From Octopus vulgaris (taxonomy: Eukaryota): 64,000 bases of DNA. Made by a program: the position numbers and the translations under genes. Positions 732-42,310 of this stretch are shown in pieces; positions within the stretch are counted from its first letter, which is position 1; every line of letters begins with the position of its first letter. Under the pieces are notes generated by a model. It was not told where the DNA came from. It did not search any database and was given only the letters and a program-made list of their open reading frames with translations. Location of the stretch: contig OX597824.1 of NCBI GenBank assembly GCA_951406725.2, positions 46,500,001 through 46,564,000 of the forward strand. The letters run 5' to 3'.

Positions 732-769
732 AAAAAAAAAGATAAAGATAAAGATAAAGAGTCCTTCCG

Positions 770-963
770 GCGTGTGTATTTCCCGTTAGATGGGACGCTG
801 ATCCATCGGAGGATTACTAACTTTTTATCAGATGAGTGGACTGGAACAATGTGAAATAAATTGTTTTGCTTAAGAACACAGCACATCGCCCGGTCCCGGA
901 ATTGAAATCACAATCTTGCAATCATAAGCCCAACACCCTAACCATTAAGCCTCGGGTCTCCAC
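770..963 (-). mobile_element. tRNA-headed SINE (family D), degenerate
   Basis: Minus strand has a ggcttaatggttagggtgttgggctt...gtgatttcaattccggg A/B-box-like head. A related copy lies at about 1250-1450. Confidence 0.55.
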
Positions 964-984
964 TTTTCAGGTCATAATGTATTG

Positions 985-1207
985 GTTTCAAATTTTGGCA
1001 CAATGCCAGAAAGTTCGGGGGATGGGGTAAATCAATTACATCGATCCCAGTGCCTTTCATCCTTTCGGGCTCGATAAAATAAGCACTTATTTTATCGAGC
1101 TCGAAAGGATGAAAGGCAATATCGACCTTGGTGGAGTTTGAACTCAGAACGTAAAATCGGAGGAAATGCCTTTCGGTGTGCTAATGATTCTGTCAGCTGA
1201 CCACCTT
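985..1207 (-). mobile_element. SINE family B
   Basis: ggtttcaaattttggcacaa...gaaaggatgaaaggcaa...tttgaactcagaacgtaaa. Confidence 0.8.
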
Positions 1208-1491
1208 AAATATAATTTTAAAAAAGAAAAGAAAATGCATAAAGATCATTTCCGAGTCGTACGGCCGGTTTCCCTGTTTTCGTGACGCATATATTTCGCC
1301 CTACCTTCACTGGACGGGTTGCCGGATTACTAATTTTTGTCAGCTGAGTTTTACTCAAGAGTACAACACGTCGCCTACTTCAGGAATCCAAAACCACAGT
1401 CTTACGTTCTTCAGTCCAACTCCTCTAAACATAAAACCGCGTGCCTCCACTTTTCAGCTTCTAATATATTAATTGTATACAGCAAATAGCT

Positions 1492-2000
1492 ATGTCGCGA
1501 ACAACAGAAGCAAAAGAGGTCTGATTTTCAAAGAGGGCTTATTGTGGGTTAATCTGGAGAGTTGGGGGCGAACTTAGCCAGCGTAAGGTTGCACAAAGCC
1601 TTAGGATTCCTTTTGCTAGAGTCAATACAGTAATTGTACAATTGCTGGCATAGCAATGGAATCAACAGCATTCTACTCAGATCGTCCTAAGTTTTCTTAC
1701 AGGACCTTCATGCTGTCAACGGAATTTTCATTTTACTTTCATCTTCTATTCTTATATTTGTTTCAGTCATGTGACTGGAACACCGCCTTTAGTCGAACAA
1801 ATCGACCCCAGGACTTATTCTTTGTAAGCCTAGTACTTATTCTATCATTCTCTTTTGCCGAACCACTAAGTTACGGGGACGTAAACACACCAACGTTGGT
1901 TGTCAAGCGATGTTGGGAGAACAAACACAGACACACAAATATATACATATATGTTATGTATGTATATATGTATGTGTGTGTGTGTGTGTATGTATATATG

Positions 2001-2086
<86 letters not shown>

Positions 2087-2440
2087 ACGGGCTTCTTTCA
2101 GTTTCTGTCTACCAAATCCACTCATAATGATTTGGTCAGCCCGAGGCTATTGTAGAAGACACTTGCCCAATGTGCCACACAGTGGGATTGAACCCGGAAC
2201 CATGTGGTTGAGAAGCAAGCTTCTTACCACGCCTACACCTGTTGTTGAAAATAATCCCCGTTGTAAGGCAGCTGATATTGCAAGACAATTCCAAAAGTGT
2301 CGGAGTATTTCTGCGAGGCGTCTCCATCAACGTGGATACTGGAATGAAAATACTAATGGATTAACAAATTCGAAGAAAGCACCAGATAGTATTCGTACAG
2401 AAATATCACTAGAACGACTGGTGTCTACTTTTGAGATGCA
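1492..2440 (+). mobile_element. Degenerate Tc1-like transposase N-terminal (HTH) fragment interrupted by a SINE
   Basis: Translates with stops and frameshifts as SDFQRGLIVG..LSQRKVAQSLRIP..VNTVIVQ..SDRPKFS, and resumes after the SINE as VVENNPRCKAADIARQ..ARRLHQRGY. DFQRG-IVG also opens the Tc1 ORF at 53330. Confidence 0.6.
1745..2237 (-). mobile_element. SINE family A, near full length, with internal (TA)n/(TG)n tract
   Basis: ttgtttcagtcatgtgactgg...gacgtaaacacacc...microsatellite...gggcttctttcagtttc...gaacccggaaccatgtggttg...cttcttaccac. Confidence 0.85.
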
Positions 2441-2524
2441 TACATACATACATACATACATACATACATACATACATACATACATACATACATACATACA
2501 TACATGTGTATATATGTACGTAAG

Positions 2525-2569
<45 letters not shown>

Positions 2570-2852
2570 ATGTATATATATATATGTGTGTGTGTGTATA
2601 TTCGTATGTATATGTATGTATATATATATATATATATGTATATACATCGATAGGAGAATGAATTATCCTATGTTTATCGTCAACATGGAAAATTCGATGA
2701 ACCGATACCAGGGTAGCAAATTCTCGTCAGAAACACGGTTGAAGCTACCTGTCCTAGGGTAGAAACTCCGGGTTCATGTGCAGAAATTTGTGTGTTATAT
2801 ATGAATAAATAAATGAATGGAGTTGAACGAAGATGTTAACAAAATGTCTTTA

Positions 2853-2934
2853 CTCTCGACATATGTTTCGAAGACAACATGGTTTCATTCCAAAGGAATA
2901 AACGGTGCAAGATGCAATCTTCTCGTCAGGAAAG
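2853..2934 (-). ncRNA. Type I hammerhead ribozyme motif (PLE pseudo-LTR)
   Basis: Minus strand: CUUUC-CUGACGA-GAAGA-(43 nt)-UCUUC-GAAA-CAUAUG-UC/GAGAG. Catalytic core intact, palindromic short stem III. Confidence 0.75.
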
Positions 2935-3651
2935 AAAGGGGGCCTCTCTCAACAACAAGACAAACAAAAATTGCGATGACTGCCTACATGGTAAACAAAA
3001 CGATAATAAGTGTTTTAAAAAAACCGTTAGTAGAATTGACGTCAAAGTTAGATAGTAGGAAGAGAAGGGTTAAAGGAATAATAGGTAGGGAATGATTAAA
3101 AGAATGTTCAAAGGCTTAGGGAAGAATTTCGCTATTGAAGTGGAGTGCACGTTAAGCTAATTGTTCAAACCACAATGACTATCGAAGTCATTTATATGAG
3201 TAAAAAGTATGTTTCTGCAAGTGTTTACATTTGTACGATTTCTCTATGAGTGTGTTTACAAGGGGAACCTTAGAGAAGAGAATATGGAAGAGTTCAGAGT
3301 TGCAAATGTTACAAAATATTCTGCCCTTATCAAAGGGAAAGGATACAGACAGTATGAACCAATCTAACTTAAAATCTATATTATTGTCTTTAAGACGCCA
3401 AACTAATTTACTTAGCCCTGTACTATGTCATTTTTTACTATCTCTGAATATTGAATAATGGTTTGAAATTATCTTAGATAACTGGGAAGTGGACGCTCCT
3501 ATATAGAAGAAGACATCGGTACCGGAAGAAATTCTACACTGGTAAATAGAATTCTTAATCTTAGAATTACTAGACAAAAATTTAATTCTGTTGAGGTCGT
3601 CCTCCGAGATCGCAATTTTTGTTTGTCTTGTTGTTGAGAGAGGCCCCGTTT

Positions 3652-5880: not shown

Positions 5881-6840
5881 TCAACGTGGATGTACACTAA
5901 TGGTAACCATTGGACGGTTGGCACTGTCAGTTATGGTAAACTGAGATTCTTTGGTCACAACAACTTTCTTAACATCAGAACTTTGTGTTACGGCGTAGGA
6001 TTGGCGGGGTAAGGGTTTTAGTGGTGCTTCTATCGTGAGTTTGCCATCTTCAGCCAGAAAAGCATTAACACTCATTGGATCCACAGATTCTGGTAGTTCG
6101 TATTCTTTGTTGAATTCTTTATGCATGGTCCTTCCTTCTCTCTTCTCTTCATGACGAGCTGAAACGACTAATTTCCGGTCCATGGTTTTAACAACTACCT
6201 CTTCTGGTTTGAATTCGCCAATGTCTACTTGAAGCTGCAGTTTCCTGGAACCGTCTGGTTCTGTAATTATTGGGTTCTGCACGGATGTCTTGTGCGATAT
6301 GCTGGGAACATTTTCACATTTTATTGGTAGAAACGTTGCTTCCTTAAAAGGAGATTGCTGATGTGTCGGTCCTTCCACTGTAAGAATACCGTCTTTACTG
6401 ACGACGCAGGTTATTTTATCTTGATCAACATCCCAAGGAATATCTATCTGTCGACTGTATTCACGACTGAATGTGGAATTACCTTTCTTTTCTTCATTTT
6501 TTCCATGAATTACAATTCTGTTGTCTTGAATTTTGACTTGTATTTCCTCAGGACTGAAGTCAGAGACGTCAAAGCAAATTTTCAGTTTCCTGATACCTTG
6601 ACTGTCGACTTCGTACAGACTCCTGAATCCTTCAACCTTGGAGAACTTATCTACGCTTGTCGCATCAGTCGGAGTTAAGGTGAAGAAGTCTTCTTTCATT
6701 TTCTGGAAATCTTTCTCCCATTGAGAGCGTTTTTCGGTTACCTGGGTTTCTATACTATTCCACGCTTTCCTTTGGCGGTCCTCAAAAGTTAAACTATCTT
6801 TTTTTACTGGAATATGAACTTCAGTGCGATAGTGAGCCAT
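5881..6840 (-). CDS. Small heat-shock protein (HSP20/alpha-crystallin family) with two tandem ACDs; p40/major egg antigen-like, 319 aa
   Basis: Long uninterrupted non-repetitive ORF. ACD1 LKICFDVSDFSPEEIQVKIQDNRIVIHGKNEEK..FSREYSRQIDIPWDVDQDKITCVVSKDGILTVEGP. ACD2 LQLQVDIGEFKPEEVVVKTMDRKLVVSARHEEK..HKEFNKEYELPESVDPMSVNAFLAEDGKLTIEAP. Start ATG at 6840 in gccATGG Kozak context, stop TGA at 5883-5881. Confidence 0.93.
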   Translation of the reverse strand: MAHYRTEVHIPVKKDSLTFEDRQRKAWNSIETQVTEKRSQWEKDFQKMKEDFFTLTPTDATSVDKFSKVEGFRSLYEVDSQGIRKLKICFDVSDFSPEEIQVKIQDNRIVIHGKNEEKKGNSTFSREYSRQIDIPWDVDQDKITCVVSKDGILTVEGPTHQQSPFKEATFLPIKCENVPSISHKTSVQNPIITEPDGSRKLQLQVDIGEFKPEEVVVKTMDRKLVVSARHEEKREGRTMHKEFNKEYELPESVDPMSVNAFLAEDGKLTIEAPLKPLPRQSYAVTQSSDVKKVVVTKESQFTITDSANRPMVTISVHPR

Positions 6841-6884
6841 GGCGCTTCTGTTTTCGTCTCTGGCTGTTGGTACCTCCCTGAATA

Positions 6885-6907
6885 CCTGCAAATATAAAAT
6901 AAAAACG
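6885..6907 (-). other. 3' splice acceptor of the sHSP coding exon (exon starts at 6885)
   Basis: Minus strand ttttattttatatttgcag|GTATTC: pyrimidine-rich tract plus CAG, 45 nt upstream of the ATG. Confidence 0.75.
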
Positions 6908-7806
6908 TTCAAAATATACTGTTGCTATCAATTTTTTGGGTAAATCGAAGTTTTAGAAATATATTAAAAAAACAAAAATTAAGTACACTTTGTAAAACAT
7001 TCACGAAAGTGTTCACAGTTAATAACAATATTTACGGCTAAAGTAAACGTTGAAGATTTATAAAATTAACAAAACCGTCAACAATGCTATGGATAGTAAT
7101 TTCTTAAAAACATATAATTATATATATTTTAGCCTATATATGAGTTGATATACACCTTTTATTCAATTAATGAAACATAATTATCAAGACATTATAATTA
7201 GATTATCAACTTGAATTTTTCATATTTAAAAAAAAAATATTTTATTATTTTGGTAATAAATCTAGCTATTTCTCGAAGCATATTTTATGAGAGTAGACAT
7301 ACGCATATATACACACATATAGACACACATATAGACACACATATATACACACATATAGACGCATATATACACACGTATATATACACACACATATATACAC
7401 TCGTTTATTGCGACAAGATTTGAAGACAGGATGTAAAGAGTTGGAACTACAACAAAGCATTTTTTCCCCGATACTCAAACGACTCTACCAGTTTGCCGCA
7501 TTCTGGGGACATGAAAATAATAAAATTATGCTAAAATATATCATTACCTTCCCTCAATAGTTTTTTTTGTTATACTTTTACGCAAAGTGCACCCTAATAT
7601 TCTTGAATTTTTAGATTCATCTCCATTTGATAAAGTTCCTATATTCCCTCAACTCACATCATATCGCTTTGATAACACACACACAGACACACACACAGAC
7701 ACACACACAGACACACACACAGATATATATATATATATATATGTATACATAAATGCATACATGTACATACATATATACATACACACACACACGCACTTAT
7801 ATTTTT

Positions 7807-14850: not shown

Positions 14851-15502
14851 TATTATAGTTCTTCTTAACGTTCTTTCTTTATGCCTTTGTGTACTGAAGA
14901 TGTTTTCTTAGTCCACTTTGAATTGAACCAATTTCGCATTGCTTTGATAACGTTGTGTTAACATTAATTTGACTGATATTTTCGGTATCTAAAAGTGTTG
15001 ATACAACAGAAACGACCGTCGGTATTGTATGGTTTAATCACTAATTAGAGATGGGATTTTCTCCATTCTTATTCTTGTCATACACTCCGAATTTCTTAAA
15101 ATTCTTCTAAACGATATTTGGATTTACATGAGGAATTACCTTGGATGTTTATTCTACTTGCATTTATTAGTGTCTGATTGTTCCATATATATAACCAAAT
15201 TCGTTTATCACTGAGGGCTTTATAGATATTTGCATGGATTTTTAATCCGTTTTACTTCTTATTATATATGTATGTATATATATATATACATATGCATATA
15301 TATACACATATATACATACATATGTATATTCATTTAGATATATCTATCTATCTATATTTTTTGCATAAACATATATTATATATATATGTATATATATATT
15401 TATATATATAATATTAATTCGAGACAAAACCACTATTTTGCAAAACAAACAAGGAAAGACTTAATCAATACATAAAAATTTTTAATATAAAGAAATAAAC
15501 CG

Positions 15503-15545
15503 CCACTACAATCGTTTCATGTCTTCAATGACATTCGTCAGGTGG
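15503..15545 (-). ncRNA. Minimal type I hammerhead ribozyme
   Basis: Reverse complement of the 15598-15640 motif, identical. Confidence 0.8.
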
Positions 15546-15597
15546 ATTTTCGATCTCCTAATCTTCATAAATTAAAACAGATTAGGAGATCGAAAAT

Positions 15598-15640
15598 CCA
15601 CCTGACGAATGTCATTGAAGACATGAAACGATTGTAGTGG
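15598..15640 (+). ncRNA. Minimal type I hammerhead ribozyme
   Basis: CCAC-CTGACGA-ATGTC-attgaa-GACAT-GAAA-CGATTG-TA/GTGG. Stem I 4 bp, stem II 5 bp, full core, GUA triplet. Confidence 0.85.
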
Positions 15641-15855
15641 CGGTTTATTTCTTTATATTAAAAATTTTTATGTATTGATTAAGTCTTTCCTTGTTTGTTT
15701 TGCAAAATAGTCTCGAATTAATATTATATAATATTTTACTATAAAATTGGATTTAATCCTAAATCTGATTTTTTCCCTGTAAATTTGGATTTATTCCCTA
15801 ATATTTATTATATTTATATATATATATATACATATATATTATATGTGTATATATG

Positions 15856-15931
<76 letters not shown>

Positions 15932-16042
15932 CATACATACACACACATTATATACATGTATGTATATAAACGTCACACATATCTATGAGTGTGTATATAT
16001 ACATATATATGCATATATATCTATATATATATGTGTATATAC

Positions 16043-16096
<54 letters not shown>

Positions 16097-16751
16097 TGTA
16101 TATATATATATATAAATATATACAGATATATAAATATACATATGCATATATATGTGTATATATATGTATGTATATATATATGTGTGTGAATACATATATA
16201 TGTGTATATATGTATGTATATATACACACACATATACACAGTGAAAAGAGTTACAGTGATTGAAAAAAAAGAATAGCGCATGCTTCGAAGTAGATACTCA
16301 GAGCAAGTAACTTTAGGTATAGCTTTGTGTTTGCCTAGCAAGGCAAGAGCAAATAAAGAAAAAAAGAAGACTGGCTCGTTTAGTTCATAAGTTAACGAAT
16401 ACAACTGAGCAACAACAATAACAACGAACAGCGAAAGAAACTGTGCTATTTAATATTAATTATAAACAAGTATTAGGTCGTGTGGGTGAAAAACAGTGGC
16501 ATAACACGGCACACGTAAGAAATGGCGCTTTACCGTAATATGCTTGTACGTCGGACCGGACATTGCTGTGGCTAAATATAATTGCCGTTTAGTTGTAGAA
16601 AAGACAAGTAGAAGAAGAGGAAGAAGAGTAGGAGGAAAGCACTACTCTCTCAAAGTTTTCGATGGGTCAGCTAGAAAAGATAACGAAATATAAAAGAAGA
16701 ATTGATCTGGTTCTTGTTTTCATATATGTATATAAATATATGTAAATATAC

Positions 16752-32756: not shown

Positions 32757-32869
32757 ACGCTTACAGCACCTAGGTTCTCCAAGCGGTCACCCACCTAAGT
32801 ACTCACTAGGCTCGTCGTTGCTTAACTTCGGTGATCGGACGAGAACCGGTGCTTTCAATGTGATATGGG
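32757..32869 (-). pseudogene. 5S rRNA-derived copy (slightly 5'-truncated)
   Basis: Minus strand ccatatcacattgaaagcaccggttctcgtccgatcaccgaagttaagcaacgacgagcctagtgagtacttaggtgggtgaccgcttggagaacctaggtgctgtaagc matches metazoan 5S rRNA, including box A and a box C-like region. The first ~7 nt are replaced by microsatellite. Confidence 0.9.
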
Positions 32870-32888
32870 TGTGCGTATGTGCGTGCGT

Positions 32889-40479: not shown

Positions 40480-42310
40480 ACTCAACAGATTAGACTGTTG
40501 GAAAAGAAAAGAATCCTAACATCGGGCTATATATTTCTTCACTATTACCTATATAGGAGTCTCTATCTGCTGTAACTAACTCCGTGTAGTCTTCTACTGA
40601 TATTAACCCTCTTTCGTCTTCCTGTCTAGGTAGGTATAATCTTGCTACTCCTGCCCTTGAGTCCTCTATTCATATTGAATCCCTTCCTAGTTCTTCTGTC
40701 TAGCTTTGCTAATTCAGCTTTGACTTCATTAGCTTCTTCACCCTTCTGATGAACTCCTCTATTTTCGTTTTCATTTCTACAGTTAGTATTCTGTCAGATT
40801 CTAATACTCCTAGATACTTAAAACTCTCTCTTCCTTTCAATGATTTTAATGCCTGGCCATCTGATAATTGGATGTTTTTGCTGTTGACTACCCGTCCCCT
40901 TCTCATGACTAATATTGCACACTTTTCTATGCCAAATTCCATGCCTATGTCTTTGATGAAGAGTCTTACAGTCTGTATTAAAGAATCTATCTCTTTTTCA
41001 TTCTTAGCCCTATTCCTGCAACCTTTCTGTTCTTCTGGTAGTAAATTCTCGTAAATACTTTCTGAAAGCATTCTTGTTAACAGCTTCCGCACTAATGGTA
41101 AGCAAGTAATTGGTCTATAGTTGCTAGCTGTATTACCCTTGCTCTTATCTTTCATAATGCGTATTGTCCTCCCTCTAGTCATCCAATTTAGTATTACTCC
41201 TCCATTAAGGCAATCCTGAAGTTGTTCCCTCAACCTCCCATGTAAACTACTGAATTTCTTTAGCCAGTACTCTCGAACTAAATCTGGTCCTGGGTTCTCC
41301 CAATTCAGCATTTTTCCTAACACTTTACTCATTAATGCATTAGTTGATCTTAGATCTGGCTGCTTCTCACAAACTACTTCTTCCCTCACTTTCTTTAACC
41401 ATACTGCATCTCCATTACGATTGACTGGCTTATCCCAAATATTACTTCAGAACTTTCTTGCTTCTTCTGCATTAGGTTTTTTTATCTTCAGTACATCGTT
41501 CTTCACTATTTGGTCATAAATCTCTGGTCTGTCTCAAATAATCTATTCTGTGATATCTGGAGAGCATGCCTGATACTGCTATGATACGCTCTTTCAACTC
41601 TTCTATTACTGTCCCAAATTCTTTCTCTTTGACTCAGTATCCTTTCTCGGAGGAAGATTTGCATCTTGTGTTTCCTACTGTGTTCACTTTCCAAGCGGCT
41701 TCTATTCTGCTCATATCTTGTCTTAAAGCCTTCACTTTATTTTGCATCATCCTTTTCCACATTTGCTCTCTTTTAATCTTTCCCTGTGAGATATCTAATC
41801 TTCTGGCGGCTGCTACTCTCCCTGCAGAGATCAATAAGTTAGTGTCTCCTATGTTTTTAGTATCTATCCTACGGATAACAGTATCTACTTTCTTAGTCAT
41901 TTTTAGCAACTTCCTTCTGTTGGTACCTTTTAATGCAGGCAGTCTTTTTCTTACTTCTTTATTCATTACTTCCTGTAACTCATCTAAAATCGTCTGATCT
42001 TCTTCACTTAAATCACTTAAGACATTAGTGCCAGTTGTCCCTTATTGGTAGCGCTATTATTATGTTTTCCTTTAGGCTCTTCTTTGATTTGAGCTGTATC
42101 CCTTATGTTATTTGTCTTTCCCACTGCCTGGTTTTTCTTTTCCAGTTCTCTTGTGATCTCTTCTACCTCCACTTCCGTAATCCACTTTCTTCTCCTAATA
42201 GTATTAGCTTTATCAACTAATCTCTGCTCAGTCACTTTAAAGTGTTAACATATGTTTTCTATAGGCCCTTCTTTTAGGTTCACTTTCAGAATTGAAAAAA
42301 GATGCTAATG
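40480..42310 (-). mobile_element. R4/Dong-like non-LTR retrotransposon relic (RT fragments, internally deleted)
   Basis: MTEQRLVDKANTIRRRKWITEVEVEEI..; ..PGPDLVREYWLKKFSSLH..WMTRGRT..NYRPITCLP..LLPEEQKGCR..DIGMEFGIEKCAIL..FKYLGVLES..RRVKKLMKSKLN. The 3' side abuts (TAA)n on the minus strand. Confidence 0.85.

Follow-up and report, generated by a model that had tools for sequence, protein, structure and literature searches.

How did a hairpin with a hammerhead motif in each arm come to lie in a (TA)n-rich stretch of the Octopus vulgaris genome, and of what is it a copy? The original prediction offered two options: a severely 5'-truncated, inverted Penelope-like element (PLE), or a distinct non-autonomous unit, MITE- or retrozyme-like. 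We addressed this question in the window (the whole 64-kb stretch of DNA analysed) and in related copies across the genome.

Structure of the hairpin insertion

The predicted inverted repeat was borne out: two arms of 133 nt each (15432-15564 and 15579-15711) are 100% complementary, and pairing resumes beyond a gap of 8 nt on the right-arm side, out to 15405 and ~15729. This gap, originally described as an indel of ~8 nt between the arms, is a deletion in the right arm; with a single match genome-wide, it is private to the window copy. The arms are indeed separated by 14 nt, but these do not form the spacer that had been supposed: they belong to exon 1 of the right arm (Table 1). Similarly, the hairpin begins at 15405 as predicted, but the insertion continues for ~80 nt beyond the hairpin, to ~15811, as a tail found on one arm only. 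In agreement with the original prediction, no ORF of at least 200 aa overlaps the hairpin, and (TA)n tracts border the insertion on the left and on the right. Both ends of the window copy fall within (TA)n, with no distinguishable target duplication.

Elsewhere in the window lie an open frame of 347 aa that encodes two HSP20/alpha-crystallin domains (5881-6924, minus strand), a full-length 5S rRNA match (32758-32876, minus strand; 83.9 bits) and a fragment of a non-LTR-type reverse transcriptase, seen as a weak RVT_1 match (40709-41446, minus strand).

Table 1. Features of the hairpin insertion. Positions are those of the window; unit positions are counted from +1, the putative transcription start.
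Feature	Position	Strand	Remarks
Left flank	15260..15404		(TA)n-rich target
Short-ended arm	15405..15564	minus	Spliced PLE 5' end, unit ~+18 to +177; alignment to natural copy L014
Second minimal type I hammerhead	15503..15545	minus	43 nt
Left-arm exon 1, final 10 nt	15555..15564	minus	Splice junction 15555/15554
Tail-ended arm	15563..15811	plus	Spliced PLE 5' end, unit +2 to ~+257
Overlap of the arms	15563-15564		2 nt common to both arms
Right-arm exon 1	15563..15588	plus	+2 to +27; splice junction 15588/15589
So-called 14-nt spacer	15565-15578		Part of right-arm exon 1
Minimal type I hammerhead	15598..15640	plus	43 nt; predicted cut after GUA, 15636/15637; intact across cut site
8-nt deletion site, right arm	15709..15710	plus
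One-arm tail	15730..15811	plus	~80 nt; parent equivalent is 5' UTR, ending ~50 nt before the ORF ATG
Right flank	15812..16240		(TA)n-rich target

Minimal hammerheads in both arms

Hammerhead pattern matches occur at 15602-15636 (plus strand) and 15507-15541 (minus strand) and nowhere else in the 64-kb window; over 100 shuffles, matches averaged 0.11 and never reached 2. The two motifs point outward, one per arm. Each contains the CUGANGA/GAAA/NUH core together with stem I (4 bp), stem II (5 bp, with a first pair, A-U, that differs between subfamilies) and a self-complementary helix III of only 2 bp; the helix III variants of other subfamilies are likewise self-complementary or nearly so. For the monomer, the predicted active fold (-5.1 kcal/mol) compares with a lowest-energy fold of -7.8 kcal/mol, and a pair of copies forms a double hammerhead at -20.8 kcal/mol. 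In these models, a single copy does not favour the active fold, and two paired copies do. Thus, the claim of a textbook 43-nt hammerhead on both strands holds for the presence of a 43-nt motif on each strand but not for the word textbook, as the motif is minimal and dimer-type, with a helix III of 2 bp. Rfam hammerhead models gave no match at the gathering score, nor at E<=10; matches to Rfam microRNA families below the gathering score were dismissed, as they merely reflect the perfect hairpin.

In the predicted fold, the whole inverted region forms a single hairpin of -238 kcal/mol, an energy at which sequestration of the ribozyme by the hairpin would be thermodynamically sound. The idea that splicing alters ribozyme folding was dropped, because the spliced and unspliced forms share the predicted double-hammerhead core. 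The part of PMC4209133 that deals with dual hammerheads describes dimer-type minimal PLE hammerheads, including opposite-strand pairs 100-700 bp apart that are read there as truncated PLEs. These resemble the present locus in their opposite-strand pairing, predicted action as dimers and an intron end beside helix I; unlike here, spliced copies and boundaries are not analysed in that part.

The parent element

A search with the right arm returned 1250 first-look candidates, of which 40 were scored. In one copy the 5' end lies 70 nt further out, and through this extra sequence we reached long elements. In one of these (L061), a pLTR, an ORF, a 3' region, a second pLTR and a tail follow one another, at ~5.1 kb per unit, and the hammerhead sits in the pLTR. 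[quoted passage not shown] For one ORF, the complete translation was compared in an alignment with 13 of the 40 relatives from the database. The 840-aa sequence contains YRDD and C-terminal YKC...YIG motifs, as read from the sequence, and the alignment adds DKT, a CxCX5C linker and CxxC/CxH near the C-terminus, with no CCHH seen; at the position where most of the 13 relatives have RWK or RWR, the parent has KWK. Pfam and PDB sequence searches with the parent protein returned no informative match.

The description of the Hydra clade in PMC8557442 lists DKT, CxCX5C, CxxC/CxH, the lack of CCHH, RWK, a hammerhead and (TA)n insertion. The octopus element shares DKT, CxCX5C, CxxC and CxH, the lack of CCHH, the hammerhead and (TA)n insertion with this clade, and by these motifs the parent classifies as a Hydra-type PLE. 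It differs in having KWK, a 5' UTR intron of 1.1-1.9 kb and, separating RT from endonuclease, an asparagine-rich insert; moreover, its unit is ~5 kb, whereas Hydra clade elements are described as generally <3 kb (PMC8557442). Intron retention is a reported PLE habit and is not diagnostic of membership.

In the parent ORF of L240 (at 733-3255), the asparagine-rich insert lies between the RT thumb and the endonuclease; it is absent in most relatives, and an insert of this kind is described in rotifer Penelope. Some parent copies (L244, L251, L253 and L260) have an internal pLTR duplication, in which a single acceptor is preceded by two exon-1 sequences spaced ~1.2 kb apart. By eye, we also considered a downstream promoter element and a further intron following the hammerhead, and dropped both for want of evidence.

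Both arms lack the parental intron

In the long copies, the unit opens with 27 nt, after which come GTATG, a long intron, TTTTAG and then the hammerhead exon; this GT-AG intron is 1162 nt in one parent copy (L063). In both arms of the window hairpin, by contrast, exon 1 is joined precisely to exon 2, with no intron. We found that the exact spliced junction occurs 222 times genome-wide versus 60 times for the exact acceptor (same subfamily; reversed controls 0). Degenerate patterns yielded 628 further spliced junctions in sister subfamilies and 455 unspliced acceptors across all subfamilies; the junction patterns differ in strictness, so the ratios of spliced to unspliced copies are rough. None of 94 loci mixes spliced with unspliced arms, and in 37 pairs both arms cross the junction. 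Spliced copies exist in at least five subfamily variants, each like its own intron-bearing parent. Contigs from four presumed-RNA runs cover exon 2 and the start of the ORF, and are uninformative on start, strand, splicing and level; these contigs leave the end of the intron uncovered, which we do not count as evidence.

The 5' limit of the spliced arms

Where do the spliced arms end? In a sample of 79 arms, drawn from 70 loci of a chromosome-ordered list of spliced-junction matches, 77 end at or inside +1, the A of TCACTT, which we take to be an initiator-like sequence. Genome-wide, 49 spliced arms reach +1, and 42 of them stop there while 7 continue upstream. In contrast, all 13 of 13 unspliced donors continue upstream of +1 (versus 7/49 spliced arms; Fisher 9e-9). 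Directly before +1, where the parent has C, 23 of the 42 stopping arms have G (background 11%), and the excess persists (11/30, p=3e-4) when 12 arms sharing one recurrent junction are left out. In three arms, a lone G separates +1 from a pure (TA)n tract. A sample from sister subfamilies behaved similarly with regard to the limit, as 26 of 30 arms stop at or inside +1; just one of the three arms at +1 carries the G. The other four of the 30 arms pass +1, three to -5 and one to -14, which hints at a minor start at -5.

From these positions, we infer that Pol II starts at +1, and the extra G would then be a reverse-transcribed cap. Untemplated 5' Gs in L1 and SVA insertions have been ascribed to cap reverse transcription in the relevant part of PMC3287187.

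Paired arms and their junctions

The 3' ends of the arms fall at two places, near +180 (short) or near +260 (long). In a sample of 94 distinct loci (drawn from 100, with a bias to long arms in the 30 that were chosen as best BLAST hits), we found 81 head-to-head pairs: 77 combine a long with a short arm, none combines two long or two short arms, and 4 include a damaged arm. Across the 77 pairs, the deeper 5' reach belongs to the tail-ended arm in 35 and to the short-ended arm in 16, with 26 equal. In the window copy, the tail arm starts at +2 and the short arm at +18, and their 2-nt overlap is a junction unique in the sample. Both flanks are TA-rich in 53 of the 81 pairs and one flank in 25. 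Single-arm insertions of both end types also exist.

At the centre, the arms overlap by microhomology in 58/81 pairs, enclose an insert in 20/81 and meet bluntly in 3/81. The original prediction had proposed asking whether other copies share the same palindromic boundaries; we found that the boundaries vary. The 81 hairpin loci show 65 distinct centre junctions, and therefore represent separate insertions, not one replicating palindrome. One junction recurs in 10 of the 81 pairs and another in 4; a recurrent junction is nearly palindromic, and recurrence is seen with either arm as the long one. It could mean that some hairpins are re-copied units. At some loci, private variants are common to the two arms, which fits copying from one template, and also fits fold-back or gene conversion.

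Intron retention in ORF-bearing copies

Copies on the ORF side were located by a motif just past the tail (85 matches); an 85-nt tandem array on C5 (L308-L320, L338) was left out, and the 50 rows obtained include 8 from one further array (L321). Twenty of these 50 rows have the unspliced acceptor, none is spliced and 30 lack the junction. A merged duplicate adds a 21st unspliced place, and two further copies carry intron sequence. Thus, the intron is absent from the window copy and the 222 matches and present in all ORF-side copies that reach the junction. No spliced arm runs into the ORF among the sampled loci, the sister sample included. As for signs of cleavage in vivo, 5' ends do not cluster where the hammerhead would cut: 1 of the 22 truncated ORF-side copies ends there, and 0 of 46 partner arms. 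A circular or cleaved template for the long copies is therefore without direct support.

At L125 (1214-1840; C6 near 72319136), a hairpin of the same family has tandem 69-nt hammerhead units in its arms (~3 and 2.5 copies) and a splice acceptor. This locus resembles a miniature retrozyme array, and might reflect rolling copying of a tiny circle. At L321 (600-3800; C9 near 50396541), 250-nt units comprising the tail and the first ORF codons stand head to head in 3 and ~10 copies; the array is without a hammerhead and ends at the usual short and long ends. L338 (C5, 119297418-119300926) is an 85-nt tandem satellite that stems from the tail end and the sequence preceding the ORF.

Origin of the hairpins

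Together, these results make it highly probable that the hairpin consists of two spliced 5' ends of a Hydra-type PLE joined head to head, formed when capped sense mRNA was copied into (TA)n, likely by the element's own RT and endonuclease. In the model that we propose, a promoter in the pLTR would give a sense mRNA, which would be capped and spliced, and the element protein would bind this mRNA near the start of the ORF. The (TA)n target would be nicked on both strands, and each strand would prime one cDNA, at ~+260 and ~+180; both cDNAs would run towards the cap and then join, mostly via short microhomology. The template mRNA would not be cut by its own minimal hammerhead. Priming at the first internal site would copy only the 260-nt leader and so give a dead-end hairpin, while ORF-bearing copies would arise from longer-than-unit or circular RNA whose downstream intron copy stays unspliced. 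A coding copy would need such tandem or circular RNA because the ORF must lie upstream of a complete priming site.

Other routes to the same structure have to be weighed against this one. With the same spliced mRNA as template, the second arm could have arisen by fold-back of a single cDNA, which would prime itself at its 5' end; self-priming is proposed in part of PMC3846280. The microhomology at 58/81 junctions, the several private variants in both arms and the nearly palindromic recurrent junction would all suit fold-back; it nevertheless seems unlikely to us, since the short-ended arm reaches further 5' in 16/77 pairs, and in those pairs folding back from the short arm could not supply the tail. 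The sequence inserted between the arms at 20/81 junctions and the single-arm insertions of either end type also speak against it. Another possibility is that a spliced copy once gave rise to a non-autonomous unit of SINE, MITE or retrozyme type, which has propagated itself by re-copying ever since. Short spliced arms are commoner than intron-bearing ones, 10/81 pairs share a junction, one locus has tandem 69-nt hammerhead units, and PMC2377424 places the Penelope promoter internally and reports that an intron-less construct was still transcribed. Even so, we judge such a unit very unlikely, given 65 distinct junctions in 81 pairs and at least five spliced subfamily variants that each match their own intron-bearing parent. 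In addition, the recurrent junction is seen with either arm long, the deletion of the window copy is unique, tandem arrays are absent from the 94-locus sample, and the terminal-repeat and duplication signature of DNA transposons is lacking.

Finally, the hairpins might derive from antisense RNA, from events at the DNA level or from mis-assembly, to which palindromes can be prone; an antisense template for head-to-head palindromes was itself proposed in PMC3846280, as far as its discussion of these structures goes. We regard all three as extremely improbable. Exact removal of a sense-strand GT-AG intron from both arms, and arms that end, with an additional G, at a base resembling an initiator, call for processed sense RNA; in particular, the spliced copies cannot have had an antisense template, because their splice junction is that of the sense strand. 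For the long unspliced copies, an antisense template could apply. An artefact is at odds with the inequality of the arms (tail, deletion) and with the same asymmetric plan at 81 loci.

What, then, becomes of the two options with which we began? The first is supported: the locus is a short inverted PLE insertion, as the parent element and the 65 junctions among 81 pairs indicate, but it is not simply a truncated DNA-like copy, being spliced and ending at the apparent start. The second is not supported: a MITE does not fit the 65 junction types in 81 pairs, the unequal ends and a parent that is a retroelement, and a retrozyme-like unit does not fit the lack of head-to-tail tandem hammerhead units at this locus. 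The features of an endonuclease-bearing PLE insertion were found: an ORF with RT and GIY-YIG between pLTRs, an inverted 5' copy with a tail at one end, and a hammerhead in the pLTR. In the portions of PMC8557442 and PMC3846280 on inverted-pLTR-plus-tail insertions, a head-to-head copy, a one-end tail, variable 5' truncation, (TA)n targets and a pLTR hammerhead are all shared with the octopus copies. The published tails are 30-40 nt versus ~80 nt in the window copy, which also differs in its intron-less arms ending at the apparent start and in having no part of the ORF. Non-LTR retrozymes, as presented in part of 10.64898/2026.07.22.740005, are likewise non-coding and PLE-derived with type I hammerheads; they are, however, head-to-tail tandems with at least two hammerheads, whereas the window element is head-to-head and dispersed. 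The shape of the insertion is already known; in the literature searched, we found no report of spliced genomic PLE copies.

Discussion

The route that we favour, priming of both target strands on spliced mRNA, has close counterparts. The in vitro experiments described in PMC11167929 show both DNA strands being cut and then extended by a PLE protein on uncleaved RNA, starting at two internal RNA sites whose spacing equals the tail, and that RNA downstream of these sites is required. The element used there, Anolis Poseidon PAc, is like the octopus element in that two internal starts set the tail, both strands are primed and the template is uncleaved. It differs in that its start sites lie inside the ORF, while both octopus sites are in the 5' UTR; PAc also belongs to another clade (Poseidon), and splicing and the cap are not addressed in that part of the paper. 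L1/SVA insertions and L1 twin priming, as covered in parts of PMC3287187 and PMC11702581, share the untemplated 5' G, second-end priming and microhomology joins. In L1, however, there is hardly any overlap between the first cDNA and the inverted part, whereas the octopus arms both copy the same 5' region, and poly(A) priming is absent.

Taken singly, the window locus is probably inert debris, and the hairpin form arises as a by-product for which we found no sign of a function. The wider value of the hairpins is the record that they keep, in hundreds of young insertions, of a sense template that was spliced and apparently capped; these insertions stand cleanly apart from the ORF-bearing copies, which are all unspliced. 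The spliced hairpins also give sharp and cheap predictions for the existing in vitro PLE system, as portrayed in PMC11167929.

Why PLEs keep their introns is called unknown in the section of PMC8557442 on this subject. In its treatment of Penelope, PMC2377424 reports that transcripts are mostly spliced and proposes selection against intron-less copies as the reason for retention; PMC3846280 put forward an antisense template instead. Our data tilt us, somewhat, towards the idea that PLEs do not avoid spliced RNA: capped, spliced mRNA would be the commonest template and would yield dead-end hairpins, and coding copies would need intron-retaining longer or circular RNA. If this is true, intron retention in PLEs would be a matter of geometry and not of selection or antisense templates, and the hairpins would constitute a genomic map of PLE start, splice and priming sites.
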